In this document: piece by piece, positions 16,640 to 28,476 of the stretch | How the letters are laid out: each line of letters opens with the position of its first letter | How positions within the stretch are numbered: the stretch's first letter is position 1 | Source: Myxococcota bacterium | GTDB taxonomy: Bacteria; Myxococcota_A; UBA9042; PHBI01; JAWLBL01 | Direction of reading: 5' to 3' | NCBI GenBank assembly: GCA_041687695.1 | Contig: JAWLBL010000021.1 | Location: forward strand, 70,325 to 134,324 | DNA length: 64,000 nucleotides | Notes under the pieces: model-generated | What the model was told of the DNA's origin: nothing | The model's database searches: none | What the model saw: only the letters and a program-made list of their open reading frames with translations | Program-made: the position numbers and the translations under genes

Positions 16640-17460
16640 ACCGGTTCGGCCACGCCCGGCTCCGCACCGCCACGACACCGCCGCCTCGCCCCCTGGGACC
16701 GCCGGTTTCCAGAGGGTGTCGCAGAAGCCCAACCGGAGTGCTCCACCTTGGTGGAGCCCCCATCCGGCGCAGCTTGCTGCGCCGGGGTTGGCGGCCAGAT
16801 CCCGGCGGCAAGCCGCCGGGGCCGGGGCTCCGGCAAGCCGGAGCACTCCAAGACCGCCTCCGCCGGCATCAACACGACACCCTCTTCCAGCCGGCCTCGC
16901 GCTCGCACCAGCACGACCTCCGACTCTCGGCCCCTGGGACCGCCGATTTCCAGGGGGTGTCGCAGAAGCCCAACCGGAGTGCTCCACCTTGGTGGAGCCC
17001 CCATCCGGCGCAGCTTGCTGCGCCGGGGTTGGCGGCCAGATCCCGGCGGCAAGCCGCCGGGGCCGGGGCTCCGGCAAGCCGGAGCACTCCAAGACCGCCT
17101 CCGCCGGCATCAACACGACACCCTCTTCCAGCCGGCCTCGCGCTCGCACCAGCACGACCTCCGACTCTCGGCCCCTGGGACCGCCGATTTCCAGAGGGTG
17201 TCGCAGAACCCCAACCGGAGTGCTCCACCTTGGTGGAGCCCCCATCCGGCGCAGCTTGCTGCGCCGTGGTTGGCGGCCAGATCCCGGCGGCAAGCCGCCG
17301 GGGCCGGGGCTCCGGCAAGCCGGAGCACTCCAAGGCCGCCTCCGCCGGCATCAGTACGACACCCTCTTCCAGCCGGCCTCACGCTCGCACCAGCACGACC
17401 TCCGACTCTCGGCCCCTGGGACCGCCGGCTTCCAGCCGGCCTCGCGCTCGCACCTGCACG
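16640..17460. repeat. Tandem array (~3.4 copies) of a 241-bp unit, each unit made of four GC-rich inverted repeats with CTTG/CAAG centres
   Basis: Unit starts at 16690, 16931, 17172 and 17413. Core: GGAGTGCTCCACCTTGGTGGAGC..CCGGCGCAGCTTGCTGCGCCGG..CCCGGCGGCAAGCCGCCGGG..GCTCCGGCAAGCCGGAGCACTCC. All ORFs across it are Pro/Arg/Ala-rich in every frame. Confidence 0.9.
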
Positions 17461-17612
17461 ACCTCAGCGTCCTCGCCCTCCCGCGCCGGCTTGGCCGGCG
17501 CTATGGACCGCGCCGGCCATGCCGGCGCTCTCGGATCTGGGGCGCACCACGGCACCGGCATGCCCCCCCTCCTGGGACCCGACTTCGTCGCTCTCCTCGC
17601 GCCGAAGAGCGC

Positions 17613-18935: not shown

Positions 18936-19414
18936 GCAGCACCTCCTACCCTATGTCGCAGTCAAGCCCCCCTCGCCGCGACCCGCTCGCCTCCCCGATC
19001 CACTCCCCTCGGCCCGCGCCGGCTCGATGGCCTCGCCGTTCACAAGCCCCCCACGCCCTTCCCGGCCGGCGTCCCTCCGTACCTGCCCTCCCGCACCGCC
19101 GGAATCCCAGCCCCGCCGCCCTCCGGCCGCGCCGGTGTCAACCTTCCGGCCGCGTACGCCTTGCACCCCTCGCCACGCCCGAATACAGTCGCCCCAACGC
19201 AGTACCGGAAGGCGGCCATGCTCACGCAAGAAGCCCAAGCACTCCGCTCGCCCGAGCCCCACGGCTCCCAGCGCACCGCGGCGCCCACCGTCTTCGCACG
19301 CGGTCCGGCCCTGCCCGGCCCCGCGCATCCCCCGCGCATCCAATAGCCAACGCACCACCTGGCCGAGGCCGCAGCCGCCAACCCGCACCCACCCCGACGA
19401 CCCAGCGAGCCATC

Positions 19415-20383
19415 ATGACCGCGCCGCAACCACCGACCGAACCGAGCCTGGGCGACTACGTCGTCCACCCGAAGTTCCCCGAGTGGGGCCCGGGCAAGGT
19501 CGCGCTCGTCGAGGGCGGCAACGTGTGGGTCTTCTTCAGGGACTACGCGGGCTCGACACCCGAGGACTCCCGGCGCGCCAAGCGCTTCAAGCTGGCCGAC
19601 CTCCCGCTCGAGCGCGCGGACCTCACGTCCGACGTGGTCCTCGACAACCTCCCGCCCTACGAGCGCAACGGCGGCGTCCTCATGCTGCCGCACCAGCGCC
19701 TGACCCTGGCCGACGCGAAGAAGGTCTTCCTCACCGAGTTCCCCCTCGGCTTCAAAGACGGGACCTACATCGGCGACCTCAGGATCGGCGAGCGCGCCTA
19801 CAAGCTCGCCGCCCACGAGCGCTTCACCGCCTTGCTCGGCGGCGGTCAGCTCGCGCAGCTCCTGGCCAGCGGGCAGGTCGCCGAGGCCGCCTCGCGCGCC
19901 CTGCAAGCGGTCACCAAGCAGCTCAACCTGCTGTCCCCCTACGAGGCCATGGCCTTCAAGGACGCCCTCGCCGACGAGCCCGCGGCCGCCCGCTACCTCC
20001 GCGGCCTCGACGCCCTCCTCCAGGCCCCGACCCTGACCGCCCCAACCTTCGAGGCCTACCTCGCCGGCTTCTTCGCCCTCCCCCAGGTCGGCAACTCACG
20101 CGTCCACTCCTGGCCCGTCTGCAGCGCCCTGCCCTTCATCGCCGCCCCCACCCGCTTCATGTTCCTCAAGCCCGGCGAGACCCAGACCGCCGTCAACCGC
20201 TTCGCCTGGGACATCAAGTACACCCCCCGCCCCAACTACGACACCTACAAGCGCCTCCACTCCTTCGCCGCCTGGCTCCAGACCGAGCTAGCCGACATGG
20301 GCTGCGCGGACTACATCGATGTGCAGTCGTTCATGTTCATCACCTGCGGCAGTAGCCACGAAGGCGCTGTGGCCGCATGTTGA
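19415..20383 (+). CDS. Hypothetical protein with DUF3553-like N-terminus (GDYVVHPKFPEWGPGKV)
   Basis: ATG at 19415 (ORF track 18953, in frame) begins the protein-like region; the N-terminal 154 aa of the longer ORF is Arg/Pro-rich. The overlapping 18934 ORF in another frame is low-complexity. Confidence 0.55.
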   Translation: MTAPQPPTEPSLGDYVVHPKFPEWGPGKVALVEGGNVWVFFRDYAGSTPEDSRRAKRFKLADLPLERADLTSDVVLDNLPPYERNGGVLMLPHQRLTLADAKKVFLTEFPLGFKDGTYIGDLRIGERAYKLAAHERFTALLGGGQLAQLLASGQVAEAASRALQAVTKQLNLLSPYEAMAFKDALADEPAAARYLRGLDALLQAPTLTAPTFEAYLAGFFALPQVGNSRVHSWPVCSALPFIAAPTRFMFLKPGETQTAVNRFAWDIKYTPRPNYDTYKRLHSFAAWLQTELADMGCADYIDVQSFMFITCGSSHEGAVAAC

Positions 20384-20434
20384 GAAACAGTTTATTGTCA
20401 GCGCGGCTGGGCCGGATATTCTGGACCGCCCTAG

Positions 20435-20463
20435 AAAGCGGGAAGTGGCGAGGCCTGACCCTA
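20435..20463 (+). repeat. Left direct repeat (att-like) of the lower-GC island
   Basis: GAAAGCGGGAAGTGGCGAGGCCTGACCCT matches 26394-26423 (GAAAGTGAGAAGTGGCTAGGCCTGACCCCT) in direct orientation. GC content drops immediately downstream. Confidence 0.5.
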
Positions 20464-20660
20464 AGCATACGGACTTCCAGCCGGAGGCGCGGGACGGTCG
20501 AGCGTCGTGTCACGACCCGCGTGGCACGTGCGCTAGCGCCGTTGTCAGTTCACTCCCCGTTGGGCTAGACTATCACCTGATATTAGGACGTCTCTCCTGA
20601 TGCCTCAGCAGCCCGAGGTGCGTGCGATGCCGAGTGACGCCGGCCCCCCCCCCGACATGG

Positions 20661-20849
20661 ATGACCCTCGATGAATTTACTGAGCATCTCAGAGTTAGCC
20701 GTTAGAAGCTCTACAACCTCGCGCAGGGCGGCGAGATCCCCTGCTTCAAGGTCGCCGGTCGAAGAGGTTTCTATCGCCCGAAGATCGACGAATGGATGCT
20801 GGCGCAGGGCCCTGGGTCGGCGACCCCGAAGGGGGAACATCGTGAGTAG
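20661..20849 (+). pseudogene. Excisionase/HTH_17-like DNA-binding ORF interrupted by an in-frame TAG
   Basis: Reads MTLDEFTEHLRVSR*KLYNLAQGGEIPCFKVAGRRGFYRPKIDEWMLAQGP. This is the classic Xis/AlpA-type helix-turn-helix pattern, with an amber codon at 20703-20705 in the recognition-helix region. Confidence 0.6.
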
Positions 20850-20867
20850 ATCGCGCGGGGTAGCAGC

Positions 20868-23800
20868 ATGAGCGTCACAGAACACCTTGAAGGCCTTGCC
20901 GCCGCGATCAACGATGGTCGCCCCCTCGTCGTGCTCATGGGCCAGGATGCGTGGCGGGTCGGCACTCGGCCGGATCCTGCGGTACTCGCAGCGCTCAAGC
21001 GTGCCGAGAGATTGGAAGTGGACTCCGATCCGAGAGGGCTCGTTTCTCTGCTCTCCGTTGAGCCCCTGCCCGAAGACTTCTTTCAATGGCTCGCTGACCA
21101 GTACCTTCGGCAGGTCGAACCTGAGTGGTTTGAGCCCATCGCACGCCTCCCATTAAACGCATTCTTCACGACTAGCGTGGACCCTACACTTTCGAGGGCG
21201 CTTCGCGTTGGGGGCCGTGATGTTGAGGCAGTTCTGAGCAAGTCGGACACCCCCGCGGCGCCGCGCCACCGACGCAATCTCCACTTGAGCTACCTTTTCG
21301 GTCGCGCCGGTGAAATGAACCTCAGTGAGGCGCCGCCGAAGTCGACTCAGGAGTTGCGACGACGAACTGCATTGCACGCGAATGCCCTCCTCGCCCGACT
21401 CGTCGAAACCACCACGTCGCTCGGGGTGCTCGCTATTGACGGGTTGACCTGTGGTAGCGACTGGCTGTCGGCCGAATCGCTGTATGGCGTGCTGTCCGCG
21501 TTCAAGCCCGGCCAAGTCTTCTGGTTCGGGTGGGACTCTTCGCTGAGCACAGGCGACGCGGCCCTGATGGAGGAACTGGCGGCGCCCAATGGCCCCATCA
21601 CTTTCGTGCCCGAGAGGCTCTCTAGCTCTCTCCGCGCGCTCACACTGGCGGGCAGAATTGAGCCGCTTCGCGCGGCGTCCTTGGCGGCGACGAACGCCGT
21701 GACTATCGGCGAATCGCTCCTCGAGATTGAGCCCTCGACGCGACTCAAGACCTCGACGGCCGCTAGTATCGTCGACGACACGTGGCTCGCGCCACTTCCC
21801 GTGCTCGGTGAGGATGAGTTCTTCGAGGAGTTCCGACGATTCCACGGTCAGGTGGAGGAAGCGCGCCGGCTCGTCGAGGGGGTGAGGCGGGGGTTCGCCA
21901 TAGAGCGGGCCTTTGAGAATCGGCTTCGCGATCGAGTCCAGAACGCACTCAAGGACGCACCGCGGCTCAAGGAACCGATTCTGCTTCATGGTCAGTCCGG
22001 AACAGGCAAGAGCATCGCACTCGCGCGCCTCGCGCTCTCCGTTCGGAAGGATCGCCGATATCCGGTGCTAGTTGCCAGCCGCGCATCACGGTTGCCCGCG
22101 GTAGACGAGCTTGACGAGTTCTGTATGCGCGCCGAGGAGGCCGGCGCCGAAGCAACCCTTCTTATCTGTGATGCGAATGCGCAGGCGGCTCGGTATCGGG
22201 ACCTTCTGCGGGGCTTTCGAAGTCGAGGAAGACGAGTCGTTGTGGTCGGTAGCGCGTATCGCCTCATTGACCAGAAGCAGGCTGCGGGAGAAGGAAGGCA
22301 TCTCATCGAGGCGCCCTCGACGCTGGACGACGAAGAAGCTGCGAATCTCACCGCGGTTCTCCGGGAGCACGCCAGCCTCAAGTACACGTCCTCAACATCT
22401 CAATTTCTGCTGCCGGCCGTCTACCGCATTCTGCCGGAGGTGCGCCCTCGATTGGCCGCCGGTCTGGCTCACGAAGCGCGGGTCGCGGAGGATGATCTCA
22501 GGTCACGCGGGACAACCATTCGGCAGGGCAAGCCCCAGCCCGCCGGTGCGCTTGGACAGGCGCTCATAGATGCGGGCTTGATTGAACCGAAAGAACTTCT
22601 CGATCTGCGACTTCAGGAGTTCATGGGAGCCCTGAGCGACGCGGCATCGAAGGCGATCGACTACGTAATGGTGCCAGGGAAGCTGGACTGCCCTGTTCCC
22701 ATCAACCTGCTGATGCGGGCGGTAGGTGGGAGCGAGAGCCTGGTTGATATCGCATCCCTGTTCTCTGGAATCGACCTGTTTCGATGGAGCACAAACGACG
22801 AGGACGATATCTTCATTCACCCTCGCCTTCGAGTCGAAGCAGAGTTGGTCACAGCTCGACGGCTCGGAACGTCGACTGCTGAGGCACAGATAGCGGTTGA
22901 TCTCCTGAAAGCAGCGAACCCCACTACACATGGAAGCTGCGAGCGACGGTTCGTCCTGGACCTTGTTCATCGTCTGGGTCCCGACGGCCCCTACGGACCG
23001 TGCTACGCCGACCACTATCTGGACGTCGCACGCGCGCTTACGGAAATGCGCGAGCGGCGCGGGCTCAGCGACCCGAGCCTCATGCTCCAGGAAGCTCGTC
23101 TCAGACGACGGGTTTTTCGAGATGCCCGGCCGAACGAACGGCACAACCCTGCGACTATCCTGGACGAGGCACGGCAGATCGTCGATCTCGCCCTCGACGA
23201 GTTCGGCGCGGCCCGCTCGCCTGGGTTGCGCCGCGTTTGCTCAATGCTTCGGGTGGAGCGCGCCGCCATCTACGGCTTTCGCGCTGTGCAACAGCTACAG
23301 TCTGGTGCATCCCAAGATGAGACTTGGCAGTACTACGAGGCAGCACGAGACGCTGCTCGCAGTGCCTTGTTCTCTGCGGACGCGTACCACGCGATCGACG
23401 TGAGCCTTTGGATACCGCGCCGACTGCTCGAGGATGGGAACTGGGATTCCGTCCGGAAGGCGGAACTGACCGCCGACATATGGGATGGTCTCGAGCGCGT
23501 CGACGCTGACGATTTGGACGCAGACCAACGTGGCGTCTTCGAGGAGCAACGCTTCAAGGTCTCGAAAGCACTTGGGAGCGACGAGCTTGAATTGGCGGCT
23601 CTCCAGGCACTCGAGTCGATGGGGTCATCCGCGGGGCTGTTCCTGCAAGCGCGAGCGATCGGCGGCGATCTGCGGGGCCGCGGGATGGCGGACGATGGTG
23701 AACGGGAGCGAGCACGACGTGTAGTCGGGTTCCTAACTGAGAAGGGACCGCGGATCCGGGAGGACGCACGATGTCTTCGGTATCTCCTGCGCGCGACCTG

Positions 23801-24299
23801 GATCAGCGCGGCAGGTAGCTACTTGTTCGGAGGGGAACGACTTCCTCTGCCGGGTTCCGAGTCGGACCTCAGAGAGCTTCTGGACATCGTCGACACCCTC
23901 GCCAACATCGAAGGCTCGTTGGGAGACCCGCGAACCGAGTACCTGCGAGCCGTGTTGATGTGGCGGTTGCAGCGGGAGAACGCTGCGCGCGAGGTTTGGC
24001 GCGCCTTGAGCCAAGACACGGCATTCAACGACCCCCGACGCATCGTTCGACACCATGTATGGAGTGAGAGCGAAGGGAAACCGCGAGTCTTCTATGGCCG
24101 AGTCGTGCGCGATGACCTGGAGCGTGGGCGAGCCAAAGTTCAGGTGGACGACATCCGGCAGGAGATAGAGATCCTACAGCGCGACTTCCCTGACCTGGAG
24201 CTGCGGCGGGGCGCCTCGATTCGCGGCGGGTTCTACATCGCCTTCAACTTCATCGGGCCGATTGCGGAGCCACTTATCAGAAGAGGGGGTGGCCGATGA
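20868..24299 (+). CDS. SIR2-like + STAND P-loop NTPase (Avs5-like antiphage defence protein), 1143 aa
   Basis: N-terminus resembles SIR2_2 (GRPLVVLMGQDAW ~ GxLVLFvGAGvS; FFTTSVDPTLSRAL ~ iTTNYDxLLE; NLHLSYLFG ~ KLHGS). Walker A is LLHGQSGTGKSIALARLA and Walker B is ATLLICDANAQ. Long C-terminal helical region. Lower GC than the genome. Confidence 0.6.
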   Translation: MSVTEHLEGLAAAINDGRPLVVLMGQDAWRVGTRPDPAVLAALKRAERLEVDSDPRGLVSLLSVEPLPEDFFQWLADQYLRQVEPEWFEPIARLPLNAFFTTSVDPTLSRALRVGGRDVEAVLSKSDTPAAPRHRRNLHLSYLFGRAGEMNLSEAPPKSTQELRRRTALHANALLARLVETTTSLGVLAIDGLTCGSDWLSAESLYGVLSAFKPGQVFWFGWDSSLSTGDAALMEELAAPNGPITFVPERLSSSLRALTLAGRIEPLRAASLAATNAVTIGESLLEIEPSTRLKTSTAASIVDDTWLAPLPVLGEDEFFEEFRRFHGQVEEARRLVEGVRRGFAIERAFENRLRDRVQNALKDAPRLKEPILLHGQSGTGKSIALARLALSVRKDRRYPVLVASRASRLPAVDELDEFCMRAEEAGAEATLLICDANAQAARYRDLLRGFRSRGRRVVVVGSAYRLIDQKQAAGEGRHLIEAPSTLDDEEAANLTAVLREHASLKYTSSTSQFLLPAVYRILPEVRPRLAAGLAHEARVAEDDLRSRGTTIRQGKPQPAGALGQALIDAGLIEPKELLDLRLQEFMGALSDAASKAIDYVMVPGKLDCPVPINLLMRAVGGSESLVDIASLFSGIDLFRWSTNDEDDIFIHPRLRVEAELVTARRLGTSTAEAQIAVDLLKAANPTTHGSCERRFVLDLVHRLGPDGPYGPCYADHYLDVARALTEMRERRGLSDPSLMLQEARLRRRVFRDARPNERHNPATILDEARQIVDLALDEFGAARSPGLRRVCSMLRVERAAIYGFRAVQQLQSGASQDETWQYYEAARDAARSALFSADAYHAIDVSLWIPRRLLEDGNWDSVRKAELTADIWDGLERVDADDLDADQRGVFEEQRFKVSKALGSDELELAALQALESMGSSAGLFLQARAIGGDLRGRGMADDGERERARRVVGFLTEKGPRIREDARCLRYLLRATWISAAGSYLFGGERLPLPGSESDLRELLDIVDTLANIEGSLGDPRTEYLRAVLMWRLQRENAAREVWRALSQDTAFNDPRRIVRHHVWSESEGKPRVFYGRVVRDDLERGRAKVQVDDIRQEIEILQRDFPDLELRRGASIRGGFYIAFNFIGPIAEPLIRRGGGR

Positions 24300-25513
24300 G
24301 CTTCGAGAGCATTCTACGCTGTCACCAGCGGATCAACGGACTGTCCAGAAGCCTCCTCGGGCGTCCCGCGTTCGACGAGCTTCACGTCGCGCTCCCTGAC
24401 CCAGCGAGTCCCGAACCTGGCTTTATCCGGGCGACCTCGTGGCTTTACTGCCTTTACTTCGAAGCGGGGCGAGTCAGCATAACGTTCTTGCGCCGTCTCG
24501 GAGAGGCCTACTCGTTGATCGACCGCGCTGAGATCGACGAGCACGTTGAGGTCGTGCGGTGCCTTCGAACAGAACTCCACCACAACCTCGGGTTCGTGGA
24601 TTCAGATCAGGCTGCGCGGGCGTCCGCAGAGGGATGGCGTCGGAGGGTCTGCGGCACTGCGATTCCTCGAGACGACGCGCAGTGGAGCAAGTGCTATGTC
24701 GGCTTGATCGAGAAGGCCAACCACTTCCTGAGCGCCATCGATGAGGTCGTTCGACGTATTGAGGCCGACGGCGACAAGGCCGGACAGCACCTTGAAGAGT
24801 GGCTTCGACGTCTCGACCGTAGTTGGCCAGCGGCAGCCTTCGACCCTGTGGTCGATGAGGCGAAATACCACCTTGGCCGCCAGGGCCTCAACACCGTTGA
24901 GTTCAGGCAGCGCCATGTCGACCGGTGGCGCGCCCAACTCGAGCTCATGGAGGATGGGTTCGACTTTGCCGAAGAGGCTACTCGACTTGTCGAGAAGTCG
25001 CTGCTGGACGAAGACAGTTTCGTTCTTCCGATAACGGGCCGCGACATTGTGAACGCTCTGCAGATTGCATCTGGGCCGCGAATTGGGACGCTTCTCGAAC
25101 AGGCGCAACGGAGGTTTGCGGCTCAGCCCTGCACCAGGGAAGAGTTGCTCGCTCACCTGGAACGCAGCCGCCCAGATTCGGATTTCGACAGCCTTGTGGA
25201 CGCGGCGAAGGTACGCTTTGGACGAGACGATCTTAATACAGTCAGGTTTCGGCAGTGTCATGTGGACCACTGGCGCGAGCAGCTCGACCTCATGGAAGAC
25301 GACGTGGACTTCGATGACCAGGCGACGCGCCTAATCGAGAAGACGTTGACAGACGAGGTGCTTCTGCCGATCACGAGTCAGGATGTTTTGGACGAACTGC
25401 GGATCAAGCCTGGCCGCCGGGTAGGAGCACTCCTCGTGGCGGCTCGCAAGCGATTCGAGTCTGCGCCGTGCACCAAGGAGGTGCTGCTGGAGTATCTCGC
25501 TGCGGTCCCCTGA
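24296..25513 (+). CDS. Partner protein co-transcribed with the SIR2-STAND gene; contains an internal tandem duplication of a ~110-aa module
   Basis: Start overlaps the upstream stop (ATGA). Two repeats (...LNTVEFRQRHVDRWRAQLELMEDGFDF...LPITGRDIVNALQIASGPRIGTLLEQAQRRF...REELLAHLE and ...LNTVRFRQCHVDHWREQLDLMEDDVDF...LPITSQDVLDELRIKPGRRVGALLVAARKRF...KEVLLEYL). Confidence 0.6.
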   Translation: MSFESILRCHQRINGLSRSLLGRPAFDELHVALPDPASPEPGFIRATSWLYCLYFEAGRVSITFLRRLGEAYSLIDRAEIDEHVEVVRCLRTELHHNLGFVDSDQAARASAEGWRRRVCGTAIPRDDAQWSKCYVGLIEKANHFLSAIDEVVRRIEADGDKAGQHLEEWLRRLDRSWPAAAFDPVVDEAKYHLGRQGLNTVEFRQRHVDRWRAQLELMEDGFDFAEEATRLVEKSLLDEDSFVLPITGRDIVNALQIASGPRIGTLLEQAQRRFAAQPCTREELLAHLERSRPDSDFDSLVDAAKVRFGRDDLNTVRFRQCHVDHWREQLDLMEDDVDFDDQATRLIEKTLTDEVLLPITSQDVLDELRIKPGRRVGALLVAARKRFESAPCTKEVLLEYLAAVP

Positions 25514-25856
25514 ACCCCAGGGGCCACGTCCGTAAGTATCAGAGGTGTCAGGGTTCCCCATTTCCCACCCGTCGCCACAGACAGGGACCTCGGCGGCCTG
25601 CGGCTTCATAGGTGCGTCGGTGCGTGACGGCGATTGGGCGGGCCCCAGGGGCCACGTCCGTAGAAGTTAAGTTGCTCGCGGATGGGCGACCGAGGCTGCA
25701 GGCGGCGTGTCCCAGGGGTCAAGTCCCAACTTACAAACAACTCGAGTGCAGACGGCTGGTTACGGGTGGCCCATGGTGAAGGAGTATGCAAGTCGCGACT
25801 TGCCCCCTCGCCCCTCTGACCCCTCGCCCCTCAGTTGCGACCATCCGGAGGAAGTG

Positions 25857-26183
25857 ATGCCCTCGCTCAGTGAATATGTAAACGTCTACAACACAGCCCT
25901 TGAGGTGCTTCGTGTCAAGGGATATCGCGTCTGGTTCGACAAGGAGGCCGATATGTACTGTGCTGAGAAGGACGGATGGGATTTCATGGCCGATGGCCCG
26001 ATTTCGCTGCTCGGCCTCGTAGCAATCTATGAACATCAAAACCCTTCAACATACAGAGACTACTGGTGGCGGCAAGAAGGGCCGCTTGAGTTCAACAAAC
26101 TCCCCAGCGAGGCTCCAGATTGCATACCTCTTGGGGTGAAGAGTTCCGAGGGCGGGGCGGGGGCAAAGGGGTCAGACACCTAA
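25857..26183 (+). CDS. Small hypothetical protein (108 aa)
   Basis: GGAGG RBS then ATG at 25857. AT-richer codon usage (island-like). No recognisable domain. Confidence 0.4.
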   Translation: MPSLSEYVNVYNTALEVLRVKGYRVWFDKEADMYCAEKDGWDFMADGPISLLGLVAIYEHQNPSTYRDYWWRQEGPLEFNKLPSEAPDCIPLGVKSSEGGAGAKGSDT

Positions 26184-26355
26184 TTGTACGCTCCTGTTGG
26201 ACAAGGAAGTGGAGGCCGCTTTGCTCCTCGCCCCGATTGGGGTGGGACTCCTCTTCGTCGCCAATGGGGGGTTCGACGACATCGCGCGATGTGCACGGCT
26301 AAAGGACGCCGTTCTGTGGCGTTCGATGTCGCCGCCGGAACGGTAGGCCCAAAGG

Positions 26356-26424
26356 CAGGGGTCAGGCCTAGCCACTTTCCATATCGGTGCTCGGAAAGTG
26401 AGAAGTGGCTAGGCCTGACCCCTG
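26356..26424. repeat. Perfect 22-bp inverted repeat (long hairpin); its right arm is also the island's right direct repeat
   Basis: CAGGGGTCAGGCCTAGCCACTT ... AAGTGGCTAGGCCTGACCCCTG with a ~25-nt loop. Confidence 0.8.
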
Positions 26425-26584
26425 GGGCCTGGTTCAGACAGGGCCTCCGCTGGTACGAGCTCCTGCCAAACATGCCCGAGGATCGTCTGAAGAAACGCAT
26501 GAACGAGTTCGTTGCGGTCATGCGAGAGCACGAGGTATGCAGCGCCGTTCTGGGGGTGCTGTAGGAATGGGGGGATGCCTCAAG

Positions 26585-26990
26585 GCCCAGGGGCCACGTC
26601 CGTAAAAGTTAAGTTGCTCGCGTGACCTCAGGGTCAAGTCCCAACTTGCAAACAACTCGAGTACGGACGGTTGGTTACGGGTGGCCCATGACGAAGAAGA
26701 GATCAGCCAGCTCCCCGTATTGGGCTCTAACAGTGAACCTCCGAAGGGCATGCGCCTCGGGGATCGGGTGAAGTGAACTCCGACGAGGCCCAGGGGCCAC
26801 GTCCGTAAAAGTTAAATTGCTCGCGTGACCTCAGGGTCAAGTCCCAACTTGCAAACAACTCGAGTACGGACGGTTGGTTACGGGTGGCCCATGACGAAGA
26901 AGAGATCAGCCAGCTCCCCGTATTGGGCTCTAACAGTGAACCTCAGAAGGGCATGCACCTCGGGGATCGGGTGAAGTGAACTCCGACGAG
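26585..26990. repeat. 203-bp tandem duplication (x2) containing MITE-like hairpin elements with CAGGGGCCACGTCCGTA termini
   Basis: Unit starts at 26585 and 26788, >95% identical. Related copies at 25515-25560 and 25643-25790, and a complete TIR-bounded copy at 63046-63260. Confidence 0.8.
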
Positions 26991-27108
26991 ATGATTCGAG
27001 GCGGCACGACCGCCGACAACGCATCGCATCGGCCTCGTCGTTCGGCTGTGTTGCTCAACATCTCTCCATTTCCTGGAGCGACGAGAAAGTGACATGTGAT
27101 GAACCGGC

Positions 27109-28476
27109 TCAATCCCCGAAGGCGTGGAGTGCACCGGGAACGTCGGCGAAAGCCCAGCCGTCGGGCAGCTGTTGGTCGGTGCCGCCGGCCCAGCGGATGA
27201 AGCGCGGGCGGGGGCCGTCGCTGTACCAGATGCCGGAGTCGGTCAGAGCATCGGGCCAGAGCGGAAAGTCGACGGCCCCTGGAGCAGGGACGAGGGCTGC
27301 CACCGCTCGGCCCTGGTTGGCGTCGAACACGGTGAGCCCGCGCGAGTCGACGATGATGTGAGAGTCGCCTGACCGGTACTGACGGACACCTGGGCCCTGG
27401 AGGTCGGCCGTCCGGGCAACCACGCGACCTTCATCGAGGTCAACGACGGCGATCCGGGACGGAAGGGCGCCTGGTCCGGTGCGCTCGATGAGCGGCAAGT
27501 AGCGAGGGACGGCCTGTCCCAAAGCCGCTCGATGAGGATAACGCCAGGCGATGCCCCCGAGCGCGTACCTGGTGACCTCGTCCGGGGGGTGGATGTCCAA
27601 TTGCCACATCGGACGACCGCCCGATGAGAGACGAAGCAGCCGGTACGGCCCTCGAATCGGGCCTGCCAGTACGACCAGGTCGGAGCCTCGAGTGCCGCAC
27701 GCGTGAATCCCGTTGGACGAGGGCCATGAGATGTCCTGGGCGGCTTCGCTCGCGAAGGAAGCGAGATGGACGGTGTCATAGTCGGAGAAGATCGGGCGAT
27801 CCTCGACAAGGCAAGCTACAGACCGGCTCTCGGCCGTGCGGAGGTGTCGTCCGGTGTCGCGGTCGAGCCAGACGAGGGTCTCGATGGCGTCGACCAGGAC
27901 ATGGGAGTCGGTCAGGTGCAAGCGGCGAAGCTTGCCGGCGTGTCCGAAGTCGGCCCGCCACGCGACGCCTGTCGACGGTGCGATCCCCAAAACCGCGTCC
28001 GCTTGGGGCACGTGGAGCGCAGCGCCTCGATCGTCGGCGACGAGGCTGTAAGGTCCCGAGGTCCACTGCTCATCCTCGCGCGAGGACCAAAGCGTAGCGC
28101 CGTCTTCGAACGAGACTGCGTGGATGAAGAGGTCGTCGTCGACCGCCGTGACCAGGATGGCGGACTGCAACGTCGGAGCGAGTAGCACCTGCCCGACACT
28201 GACTCGCCAGCTGCCAGGTACGCGCGACCGCCACAAACGCTCTCCCTGCCGCCAGGCCTCGACGAGCGTCTCGCGGTCACTCGGCCGGTCAGTGAGCACG
28301 AAGATCACCTGCCCGTGCGCCACGACGGCACGCGCGGCATCATGGTCGCTGCGAGACCACATGAGGAGACCCATGATCGAGCACACGGCGACCAAAGCGA
28401 TGACGAGTCGGTTTCGGATCAGGGCTGAATCTCCGGGAGTTGGGCCATCGGCAAGCTCATGACTTCGGCCATCCAC
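27109..28476 (-). CDS. Membrane-anchored beta-propeller (PQQ/BamB-like repeat) protein, hypothetical
   Basis: N-terminal TM helix (LVIALVAVCSIMGLLMW). Repeated ...LWS../..VW.. blade-like motifs. Lower GC. Confidence 0.5.
   Translation of the reverse strand: MDGRSHELADGPTPGDSALIRNRLVIALVAVCSIMGLLMWSRSDHDAARAVVAHGQVIFVLTDRPSDRETLVEAWRQGERLWRSRVPGSWRVSVGQVLLAPTLQSAILVTAVDDDLFIHAVSFEDGATLWSSREDEQWTSGPYSLVADDRGAALHVPQADAVLGIAPSTGVAWRADFGHAGKLRRLHLTDSHVLVDAIETLVWLDRDTGRHLRTAESRSVACLVEDRPIFSDYDTVHLASFASEAAQDISWPSSNGIHACGTRGSDLVVLAGPIRGPYRLLRLSSGGRPMWQLDIHPPDEVTRYALGGIAWRYPHRAALGQAVPRYLPLIERTGPGALPSRIAVVDLDEGRVVARTADLQGPGVRQYRSGDSHIIVDSRGLTVFDANQGRAVAALVPAPGAVDFPLWPDALTDSGIWYSDGPRPRFIRWAGGTDQQLPDGWAFADVPGALHAFGD

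Follow-up and report, generated by a model that had tools for sequence, protein, structure and literature searches.

STAND/NLR-like ATPases are central to both bacterial and animal innate immunity, and most characterised bacterial STANDs are single proteins with a fused effector. Avs5 (AVAST type 5) is a single-gene NADase in which a SIR2 domain (PF13289) is joined to an nSTAND3 NTPase (PF20720) and a long C-terminal repeat/sensor region. Immunity by Avs5 is abolished by the substitution N110A and tolerates NG in place of HG, which is one of the sirtuin motifs (with GAGXS and TTNXD) defined in the same study (PMC12931631). In SAMD9/9L and Avs9, a nuclease effector domain (AlbA_2) goes together with a STAND NTPase and a SIR2-like domain of variant type; in SAMD9/9L this nuclease domain is reported to cleave tRNA-Phe (PMC5445408, PMC12680541). 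The system described here differs in that its STANDs belong to a conserved clade known to Pfam solely as nSTAND5 and always occur with a separate subunit of ~300 aa, and in that the fused SIR2-like domain looks degenerate while the separate subunit bears the tRNA-elbow motif of CCA-adding enzymes. In the literature searched, nSTAND5, PF25199 and PF13735 were not mentioned in a defence context, and the main text of a large 2026 STAND survey does not discuss the present STAND-partner pair.

The window analysed is a 64,000-nt stretch of a Myxococcota bacterium contig, and all features discussed lie on its + strand. The STAND NTPase (20868..24299, 1143 aa), identified from PF25199, Foldseek and motif conservation, consists of a SIR2-like region (residues ~1–330), an nSTAND5 P-loop NTPase (340–473), an extended helical stretch and, at the C-terminus, ~90 aa rich in beta structure. 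The Pfam match to PF25199 spans residues 340–473 and scores 39.2 bits against a cut-off of 34 bits; the Walker A motif is GQSGTGKS, and the pattern G-[QG]-[ST]-G-x-G-K-[ST] is kept in the 16 full-length homologues. At the N-terminus, the top 50 Foldseek matches were mostly SIR2 proteins, chiefly those of defence systems (ThsA, DSR2, KomC, SPARSA) and also SIRT2 (E-values of 3e-3 to 6e-2, probability up to 0.99), obtained with a low-confidence model of mean pLDDT only 52, and Pfam returned no match to PF13289 in this region. By inspection, the position of GAGXS is occupied by GQDAW and that of TTNXD by TTSVD; none of 16 homologues has the sirtuin Asn, and four of the 16 have P, N, N or Y where H139 stands. 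Other positions of the domain (G25, Q26, D198, W199 and Q216) are invariant. From this motif inspection and the low-confidence model, the SIR2-like domain looks degenerate and may be inactive.

Comparison with Avs5 shows the same order of N-terminal SIR2 domain (with a putative SIR2 fold in the present protein), STAND NTPase and long C-terminal region, with the sirtuin motifs in register (GAGXS at 24–28 against GQDAW at 25–29; TTNXD at 108–112 against TTSVD at 101–105). The present protein, in contrast, belongs to nSTAND5, has degenerate motifs, lacks the Asn that is essential in Avs5, matches neither PADLOC models of that system nor PF13289, and comes with an obligatory second gene, which Avs5 does not have. 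SAMD9/SAMD9L and Avs9 (with TPR and OB) likewise share a non-canonical SIR2-like domain and a STAND NTPase, and their order of SIR2-like domain, NTPase, helical repeats and small beta-rich C-terminal domain resembles that of the STAND protein; the output of SAMD9/9L is tRNA-directed. Here, by contrast, a tRNA-directed component would be a separate all-helical polypeptide rather than a fused AlbA_2 domain, and the likeness to SAMD9/Avs9 is an architectural analogy only, with no sequence relationship detected. A sequence link of the STAND protein to SAMD9 or Avs5 was considered and dropped, since profile comparison with the PDB yielded nothing beyond generic P-loop matches and PADLOC gave none. 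In PADLOC-DB 2.0 the partner had no match and the STAND protein matched only an RtcR-like AAA model (E=0.016).

The partner gene (24296..25513, 405 aa) starts with an ATG that overlaps the stop codon of the upstream 1143-aa ORF by 4 bp (ATGA), and a Shine-Dalgarno-like run, GAGGGGG, lies 7–13 nt 5′ of this ATG. The Shine-Dalgarno-like element as read from the sequence, AGAGGGGG (24282..24289), sits inside the 3′ end of the STAND gene and suggests that translation of the STAND protein and its partner is coupled. Co-occurrence with SIR2-STAND homologues, by which the original prediction of an accessory to the STAND protein could be checked, was complete: the STAND gene lay directly upstream of the partner gene on the same strand in 23 of 23 loci, which come from Myxococcota, Binatia, Gammaproteobacteria, Acidobacteriota, Chlorobium, Hydrogenedentes and Streptomyces. 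This taxonomic count is a lower bound because genome contigs were scanned with an alignment biased towards closer relatives. The two-gene cassette, a SIR2-like nSTAND5 NTPase of ~1140 aa followed by a partner of ~300 aa, is horizontally mobile. Its shared extent in the window (20480..25521) was the sole segment matching the compared 21-kb stretch of a Nannocystis MAG contig, at 93% identity, and similarity ends 8 bp past the partner stop codon; GC content is 0.61–0.64 in the cassette and 0.70–0.79 in the flanks. The cassette is probably an immune system, a role assigned from the STAND family and the genomic context only. Neither BLASTP nor profile search found a domain shared by the STAND protein and its partner, and homotypic (EAD-like) adaptor logic between the two was dropped.

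The partner is a constant second subunit with a fixed plan, namely a family-specific helical N-terminal domain followed by a helical module of ~115 aa. Its AF2 model is all-helical with a mean pLDDT of 89.6. In the window protein this module is duplicated in tandem (residues 173–290 and 288–403), as had been read from the sequence when residues ~180–290 and ~295–405 were noted to align. BLASTP of residues 171–292 against 286–405 aligned 173–288 with 288–401 (E=1e-43; identity 54%, positives 72%, a single gap of two residues), in agreement with the repeat consensus that had been written out by eye, and a 106-nt stretch of the two copies is still 72% identical at the DNA level (E=7e-13). Copy 1 (residues 176–292; 24821..25171) is orthologous to the single module of the ~300-aa family members, and copy 2 (residues 293–405; 25172..25510) is lineage-specific and more diverged, with P-I-T-S-Q-D replacing P-I-T-G-x-D. 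Among 266 family members retrieved, 262 are ~300-aa proteins with one module and three carry two; the second copy is common only to three Nannocystis-like orthologues. These form three 90%-identity clusters, 83–92% identical to the window protein, also of 405 aa and with two modules, one of which has 11 members of several independent origins, all but one being 405 aa long. The duplication is not an assembly artefact because such independent two-module clusters, including the 11-member one, exist. Relative to the Nannocystis MAG orthologue, dN/dS was 0.27 and 0.26 for the two copies and 0.13 for the N-terminal domain, values that place both module copies under purifying selection; together with the independent contigs, they rule out a decaying duplicate as well as an assembly artefact. 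Judged from the relatives retrieved, the duplication is a trait of the Nannocystis-like clade and not of the partner family.

We then asked what the module resembles. The C-terminal tail of CCA-adding enzymes has a general role as an anchor to the tRNA elbow (PMC3925840), and in human TRNT1 residues G390/H391 and G401/K402/G405 are reported to make contacts with the tRNA T-loop/elbow (bioRxiv 10.64898/2026.03.02.709036). The match to these proteins is confined to the last ~50 aa of the module and lies at the far C-terminal end of class II CCA-adding enzymes, in their tail; the first ~65 aa have no match. In copy 1 the tail-like segment covers residues 244–290 (25025..25165), in which L-P-I-T-G248-R-D and G260-P-R-I-G264 align to TRNT1. 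The window protein matches tRNA_NucTran2_2 (PF13735) over profile positions 103–134 of 149 with E=1.8e-4 and 21.9 bits, which is below the gathering threshold of 27 bits; across the family, PF13735 is the top Pfam match in 101 of the 113 members scanned, with E<=1 and down to 1.7e-6. Furthermore, two independent family profiles ranked CCA-adding enzymes first among 177,635 PDB sequences (E-values: human TRNT1 5.9e-4 and 6e-5, fungal cca1 0.12, and 3wfo, a chain named ‘Poly A polymerase’, 0.87), all aligned at their extreme C-terminus, and the NCBIfam CCA nucleotidyltransferase model (NF009814) also matched independently. The profile alignment to TRNT1 (E=6e-5) places G248/x249 on G390/H391 and G260/x261/G264 on G401/K402/G405. 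P245, G248, D250, G260 and G264 are the best-conserved residues of the segment, and the AF2 helices of copy 1 (248–255, 261–276 and 281–290) begin where TRNT1 alpha19 and alpha20 do, so that the glycine-rich helix starts and the predicted secondary structure agree with those of class II enzymes such as TRNT1 and the Bacillus-type CCA enzymes.

The resemblance has clear bounds. The helix-start motif P-x-x-G-x-D ... G-x-x-x-G is present in copy 1. Copy 2, with Ser at the first Gly and no CCA-tail match, has moved away from this consensus. Foldseek gave no significant structural match of the module to CCA-adding enzymes. Neither PolyA_pol_RNAbd (PF12627) nor the Pol-beta head (PF01743) matched the window protein at Pfam E<=1, and both are absent from the families listed for 113 members; identity with PolyA_pol_RNAbd is thus ruled out. 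The original prediction of a CCA-enzyme/poly(A)-polymerase RNA-binding region accordingly stands for the last ~50 aa (PF13735, TRNT1) and falls for PolyA_pol_RNAbd, and its recognition of a tRNA-nucleotidyltransferase C-terminus in the string L.I..GP.IG.LL was borne out. Compared with class II CCA-adding enzymes, the partner is without Pol-beta head, neck or detectable body domain, and its motif is joined to an unrelated N-terminal domain, within a STAND operon and here in two copies. In our judgement the homology of these ~50 residues to the class II tail, as seen in profile comparisons, is real but narrow.

A match arising by chance from glycine/leucine low complexity, with the repeat as a recent duplication devoid of functional meaning, would account for the sub-cut-off Pfam score of the window protein, the missing match of copy 2 and the non-significant structural searches. 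We regard this explanation as very improbable, given that PF13735 is the top Pfam match in so many members, that two independent profiles rank CCA enzymes first in the PDB and always at their C-terminal end, that the NCBIfam model matches independently, and that dN/dS is ~0.26 in both repeats. A different possibility is that the short CCA-tail-like helix-turn-helix motif has been re-used for protein-protein or small-ligand binding. The partner would then act as a regulator, chaperone or antitoxin-like protein, keeping the STAND protein inactive or stabilising it with no involvement of tRNA. Such a role would fit the weak similarity over only ~50 aa with no significant Foldseek match, the ATGA coupling and strict 1:1 pairing, as is usual for toxin-antitoxin-like pairs or stoichiometric regulatory ones, and the one variant with a GerE DNA-binding HTH. 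We nonetheless consider it quite unlikely: the best-conserved residues are the glycine-rich helix N-termini that in TRNT1 touch the RNA backbone and the elbow base pair, purely structural re-use would be unlikely to keep so exact a pattern at a mean identity of ~29%, and fusions of the TIR and PNP effector type would be unusual for an inhibitor.

The N-terminal domain of the partner (residues 1–175; 24296..24820) is family-specific and ends in a 48-residue helix (127–174). Column identity across the partner family averages ~29%, and the frequency of the major residue is 0.48 in the module and 0.42 in the N-terminal domain. Against this background, E56, R91 and H96 are each conserved in 99% of 135 diverse members and T92 in 96%. 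R91-T92-E-L-H-H96 (24566..24583) forms a near-invariant R-T-x3-H motif and, with E56, a candidate active or ligand site; the conservation of E56/R91/T92/H96 is that of a set of catalytic or ligand residues. Two variants with other C-terminal fusions, P0236 (the GerE-HTH fusion) and P0241, are without R91 and H96, and P0236 is also without E56; both are still paired with a STAND. C-terminal fusions were found to TIR_2 in two variants, to PNP_UDP_1 in one and to the GerE DNA-binding HTH in one, and the TIR and PNP fusion variants retain the E/R/H cluster.

HEPN RNases include the tRNA anticodon nucleases PrrC and RloC and need dimerisation for activity; activation through induced dimerisation or oligomerisation would suit an effector under STAND control. 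Like these enzymes (Rx4-6H), the N-terminal domain is all-helical with a near-invariant R-x4-H and a conserved Glu. The two differ in several respects: HEPN domains have R-x4-H at the start of a helix, whereas in the AF2 model it sits at the C-terminal end of helix 77–95; Thr follows the Arg where polar Asn, Asp or His is usual in HEPN; and neither HMM nor fold searches matched the domain to a HEPN family. Searches with Pfam, NCBIfam, PADLOC, PHROGs, PDB profiles and Foldseek assigned no nuclease or other enzyme family to the N-terminal domain, and a profile search with this domain alone against 5.8 billion proteins returned only the partner family itself; the domain occurs solely in the ~300-aa partner architecture. 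A HEPN, HD or other enzyme identity thus found no support in the Pfam, NCBIfam, PADLOC, PHROGs and PDB profile searches or the 5.8-billion-protein search. One Streptomyces homologue is named ‘HD domain-containing protein’ by NCBI; Pfam and NCBIfam scans of the family gave no HD match.

The CCA-tail elbow motif and the duplicated module suggest that the system reads or attacks tRNA, and we tentatively favour, at a confidence somewhat short of even, a partner that is the RNA/tRNA-docking output subunit of the STAND system. The module would dock on structured RNA, most probably the tRNA elbow, and present it to the N-terminal domain, which would be the source of the output by RNA cleavage or modification; the Rx4H spacing of this domain recalls the dimerisation-activated HEPN RNases, and the output would be switched on by oligomerisation of the STAND ATPase after an invader is sensed. 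SAMD9/9L and Avs9 offer a precedent for such a design. Since its signature sirtuin motifs are lost, the SIR2-like domain would serve as a scaffold and not as an NADase. In the Nannocystis-like lineage, the extra module may provide another RNA contact and with it higher avidity or a changed range of targets. TIR_2 and PNP_UDP_1 fusions, being of effector type, indicate a place for the partner on the output side of the complex; as these variants keep the polar cluster, they would carry two effectors, and a binding site explains the retention equally well. Weighing against an output subunit are the absence of a detectable enzyme family for the N-terminal domain, with R-x4-H at the wrong helix end for HEPN, and a CCA-tail likeness that is short (~50 aa), sub-threshold in the window protein and unaccompanied by a significant structural match.

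Alternatively, the partner may be a sensor or co-sensor whose module recognises an infection-associated RNA (a phage-encoded tRNA, a tRNA-like structure or a damaged or fragmented host tRNA) and signals to the STAND protein, the output coming from a divergent but active NAD+-consuming SIR2-like domain or from the fused TIR/PNP. The E/R/T/H cluster would then bind an RNA end or nucleotide with no catalysis, as expected from its retention in TIR/PNP fusions, where a binding site is more natural than a redundant effector. The homology of the module to a tRNA-elbow reader fits such sensing, as does its lineage-specific duplication and drift, variation typical of a recognition surface; the SIR2-like domain also retains many invariant residues, and Avs5 tolerates NG for HG. 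The usual sensor position of STANDs is, however, already taken up in the STAND protein by ~640 aa of helical and beta-rich sequence at its C-terminus, the sirtuin Asn that Avs5 cannot do without is missing from all 16 homologues, and conservation is slightly higher in the module than in the N-terminal domain, unlike an arms-race sensor. On balance we rate a sensing partner as possible but rather doubtful.

A bolder reading, which we think unlikely, would make the pair an undescribed, widely transferred bacterial immune system with tRNA as its output or trigger. Its partner protein would represent a novel type of tRNA-directed protein, in which an elbow reader taken from CCA-adding enzymes and joined by the 48-residue helix acts as a molecular ruler, setting on tRNA a new catalytic domain that is neither HEPN nor PIN nor AlbA; the pair would be a split bacterial counterpart of SAMD9/Avs9 (variant SIR2, STAND and tRNase), and the Nannocystis duplication a natural retargeting experiment.

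Should our inference prove wrong, the pair would still be a well-defined two-gene family, present in many phyla and open to testing. If it holds, a housekeeping tRNA-recognition element has been recruited into immunity, and abortive defence directed at tRNA would have been reached by a third independent route, beside the PrrC/RloC and SAMD9/Schlafen types. The design of an elbow reader coupled to a ruler could serve the engineering of tRNA-targeting tools, and the existence of one-module and two-module proteins provides a comparative handle on what the module recognises.

The partner gene (24296–25513, +; 405 aa) begins at an ATG preceded by a Shine-Dalgarno-like GAGGGGG run, and its start overlaps, in an ATGA junction, the stop codon of the 1143-aa ORF upstream (20868–24299, +; hereafter STAND). 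BLASTP comparison of the C-terminal halves of the partner aligned residues 173–288 with 288–401 at 54% identity and 72% positives (E=1e-43) with a single 2-residue gap, and therefore both the coordinates and the consensus string of the tandem duplication in the original prediction were correct; the DNA of the two module copies still shares 72% identity over a 106-nt stretch. The N-terminal 180 residues had no BLASTP counterpart elsewhere in the same protein.

Relatives were collected from 5.8 billion proteins by word-indexed search (119 sequences) and from 1.84 billion cluster representatives by exhaustive phmmer scanning (474 at E<=1e-3, 350 of them at E<=1e-10). Nearly all are 290–310 aa long and match query residues 1–290 only; scanned with module 1, 262 of 266 retrieved sequences contain one module and three contain two. 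Duplication is thus confined to a single clade, its two-module members (P0001–P0003, one from a Nannocystis MAG) being 83–92% identical to the window protein. Copy 1 (residues 176–292), 70% identical to P0004, the nearest one-module relative, is orthologous to the single module of other family members; copy 2 (residues 293–405) is more diverged (60% identity to P0004, 54% to copy 1). Both copies are conserved in the 405-aa orthologues, with dN/dS values against the Nannocystis MAG gene of 0.27 (copy 1) and 0.26 (copy 2), compared to 0.13 for the N-domain (residues 1–175), which argues that the extra copy is a maintained, functional addition and rules it out as debris. An assembly artefact was likewise ruled out, as the P0001 cluster alone holds 11 members from independent sources.

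The module had been likened to the C-terminal region of CCA-adding enzymes and poly(A) polymerases. The sole Pfam match of the partner was sub-threshold, to tRNA_NucTran2_2 (PF13735; 21.9 bits vs a cut-off of 27, E=1.8e-4), and aligned residues 244–275 with profile positions 103–134 of 149. The same Pfam family was matched in 101 of 113 partner-family members scanned singly (best 1.7e-6), and any other in at most 6. CCA enzymes also ranked first when family profiles were run against all PDB sequences (human mitochondrial TRNT1, E=5.9e-4 with a close-relative profile and 6e-5 with a diverse one; fungal cca1, E=0.12; chain 3wfo, “Poly A polymerase”, E=0.87), and the region matched in every PDB CCA enzyme was the extreme C-terminus (the CCA tail). 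NCBIfam NF009814 (CCA tRNA nucleotidyltransferase) weakly matched four of nine members tested, over ~75–80 residues in two Streptomyces-type members. That this similarity arose by chance is highly improbable. One limit on the resemblance is that the full partner model retrieved nothing significant from the PDB by Foldseek (best match 1miv_A, the B. stearothermophilus CCA enzyme, E=1.1, TM 0.14) or from BFVD by structure search.

In class II tRNA nucleotidyltransferases the tail is an anchor on the T-loop/D-loop elbow (review, PMC3925840), and in TRNT1-tRNA complexes it touches the elbow at two places: Gly390/His391 of helix alpha19 make a backbone contact at C56, and Gly401/Lys402/Gly405 at the alpha20 N-terminus stack on the elbow (bioRxiv 10.64898/2026.03.02.709036). 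HMM alignment placed these residues on the family segments P-I-t-G-k-D and G-p-e-V-g, with window-protein equivalents G248/R249 and G260/P261/G264. P245, D250 and G260 are 93–99% conserved and G248 86%, against a family mean column identity of ~29%, and G264 is nearly invariant in closer relatives. In the AF2 model (mean pLDDT 89.6), helices begin at 248 and 261 and another at 281–290 closes the segment, an arrangement that mirrors alpha19, alpha20 and the last helix of TRNT1. By these alignments, the module carries the CCA-tail elbow-contact motif, with similarity over ~50 of its ~115 residues. The observation behind the original prediction is confirmed, and its interpretation is supported in part, by this motif and by the pairing with STAND; PolyA_pol_RNAbd had no match in Pfam scans of the window protein and the 113 members.

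The strongest conservation in the family lies in the N-domain (E56, R91, H96, W114, P124 and W130 at 99%, T92 at 96%). Profile searches of Pfam, NCBIfam, PADLOC, PHROGs and PDB gave no relatives of this domain outside the family, and an N-domain-only profile run against 5.8 billion proteins recovered just the same ~300-aa architecture. R-x4-H is the motif spacing of HEPN RNases, which R91-x4-H96 of the partner shares. In the AF2 model, E56 lies near the end of helix 39–57 and R91–H96 at the end of helix 77–95; since these helices run parallel, the topology suggests that the residues can be spatial neighbours, forming with T92 a polar cluster. In P0236, a GerE-HTH fusion, the motif reads L-Y-S-Y-L-S-W-N and position 56 is G, and P0241, with a 280-aa C-terminal extension without domain assignment, has lost R91 and H96; both remain paired with STAND. 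Residues that catalyse a reaction or bind a ligand are typically lost together in this way, and E56, R91 and H96 would behave like such residues. The ligand-binding alternative underlies the main rival reading, in which the partner would be a subunit that senses RNA, with the cluster as its binding site; we consider it possible, though less likely than the reading proposed below. The cluster is kept where TIR_2 (P0201 and P0262) or PNP_UDP_1 (P0150) is added after the module, the STAND protein upstream of P0150 and P0262 is full length, and all C-terminal-extension variants (loci L007–L011, L024 and L025) still follow a STAND gene. A ~95-aa insertion between N-domain helices 3 and 4, beta-rich in most cases, occurs in P0138, P0141, P0160, P0179, P0196 and P0218, with a sub-threshold RNA_pol_A_CTD (helix-hairpin-helix) match in P0196.

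A STAND homologue lies immediately upstream of the partner, abutting it on the same strand, in 23 of 23 fetched loci (~18 distinct), which supports the proposed partnership with the SIR2-STAND protein. A non-RNA regulatory subunit, compatible with this pairing and at odds with the elbow-contact motif, is unlikely. Hosts include Myxococcota (Nannocystis, Polyangiaceae), Binatia, Chlorobium, Hydrogenedentes, Streptomyces, Gammaproteobacteria (Thiohalocapsa, Solimonas, Pseudoalteromonas), Acidobacteriota (Vicinamibacterales and an unclassified acidobacterial MAG) and Thermoanaerobaculia. Neighbours vary between loci, and several include mobile or conflict-type genes (integrase, DNA methylase with an HATPase_c_3 protein, BrnT/BrnA, CcdA, RHS toxins). 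The window and a fetched 21-kb Nannocystis MAG stretch have only 20480–25521 in common (93% identity), a segment that ends 8 bp past the partner stop codon and sits in a GC trough (0.61–0.64 vs 0.70–0.79 in the flanks). As a unit, the two genes behave like a mobile cassette. Neither a tRNA gene nor an integrase turned up in the 64-kb window. In the called protein P0102 (354 aa, metagenome), the last ~120 aa of a STAND homologue run directly into the partner, probably because of a frameshift or of a gene call that joined the two across their overlap, further evidence of conserved gene order.

Within the shared 5-kb segment, an HTH_17 (AlpA/excisionase-like) homologue (20661–20849, +) precedes STAND, as does its 64-aa counterpart in the Nannocystis MAG (L001:6363–6557); the window homologue looks like a pseudogene because of an in-frame stop at 20703–20705, and gene calls at other loci showed no HTH_17-type gene 5′ of STAND. 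The GC trough (20001–28000) runs ~2.5 kb past the cassette, over ORFs at 25707–26183 (+), 26184–26564 (+) and 27109–28476 (−) with no informative match except a weak PQQ_2/BamB-like beta-propeller one. Just 5′ of the trough lies a 476-aa ORF (18953–20383, +) with a short DUF3553 match above gathering score at residues 167–196. The high-GC region 5′ of the cassette also holds a tandem DNA repeat (16663–17480; 241-bp period, ~3.3 copies, 92–96% identity), where long overlapping ORFs in several frames look spurious.

The STAND protein contains an nSTAND5 NTPase domain (PF25199, 39.2 bits vs a 34-bit cut-off), with the Walker A motif conserved among homologues. Its N-terminal 340 aa yielded only a low-confidence model (pLDDT 52, from an alignment of eight sequences); most of the top 50 Foldseek matches of this model were defence SIR2 proteins (ThsA, DSR2, KomC, SPARSA) or human SIRT2, the best at E=2.6e-3 with probability 0.99, and we tentatively accept a SIR2-like fold from these matches. 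All known sirtuins are marked by GAGXS and TTNXD (positions 24–28 and 108–112 in Avs5), Avs5 N110A loses immunity, and the HG motif may be NG (PMC12931631). In register with these motifs, the STAND family reads G-Q-[DSREA]-x-[WL] (25–29) and [TS]-[TSA]-[SHAG]-[VI]-[DS] (101–105); the sirtuin Asn is missing from 16 of 16 homologues, four of which also have another residue in place of the candidate His139. With motifs this degenerate, NADase activity appears doubtful. The C-terminal ~90 aa (residues ~1055–1143, 24030–24296) are beta-rich and strongly conserved (G-R-V...V-x-V...F-x-I-A-F-N-F-I-G-P), reminiscent of a small OB/cold-shock-like domain such as the C-terminal OB of SAMD9/Avs9-type proteins.

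Neither the STAND clade, already catalogued, nor the CCA-tail motif is new; PADLOC assigned neither protein to a catalogued system, the partner family is annotated “hypothetical protein” throughout, and the literature searched contains no description of the pair. As far as searched, there is no earlier account of the obligate pairing, of the degenerate SIR2 domain or of a tRNA-elbow motif recruited into a STAND system. SAMD9/9L and bacterial Avs9 likewise combine a variant SIR2-like domain and STAND NTPase, fused to an AlbA_2 nuclease domain, for which cleavage of tRNA-Phe has been reported in SAMD9/9L (PMC5445408, PMC12680541); this likeness is analogy only, because PDB profile searches found no sequence link to STAND. 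Together, the two genes make a fixed two-subunit system whose partner joins a polar-cluster domain to a CCA-tail-motif module. We tentatively propose that the module docks onto tRNA or an RNA of similar structure, that the N-domain supplies the output once STAND oligomerises, and that the SIR2-like domain serves as scaffold. Four observations support this reading: the sirtuin motifs are degenerate, E56, R91 and H96 behave like catalytic residues, effector-type domains are sometimes appended to the partner, and SAMD9/Avs9 offer a precedent. In copy 2 the first conserved Gly is Ser (P-I-T-S-Q-D), and copy 2 alone matched PF13735 in none of four orthologues, which suggests sub- or neo-functionalisation; in the Nannocystis clade, the second module may add a second contact or shift the target range.
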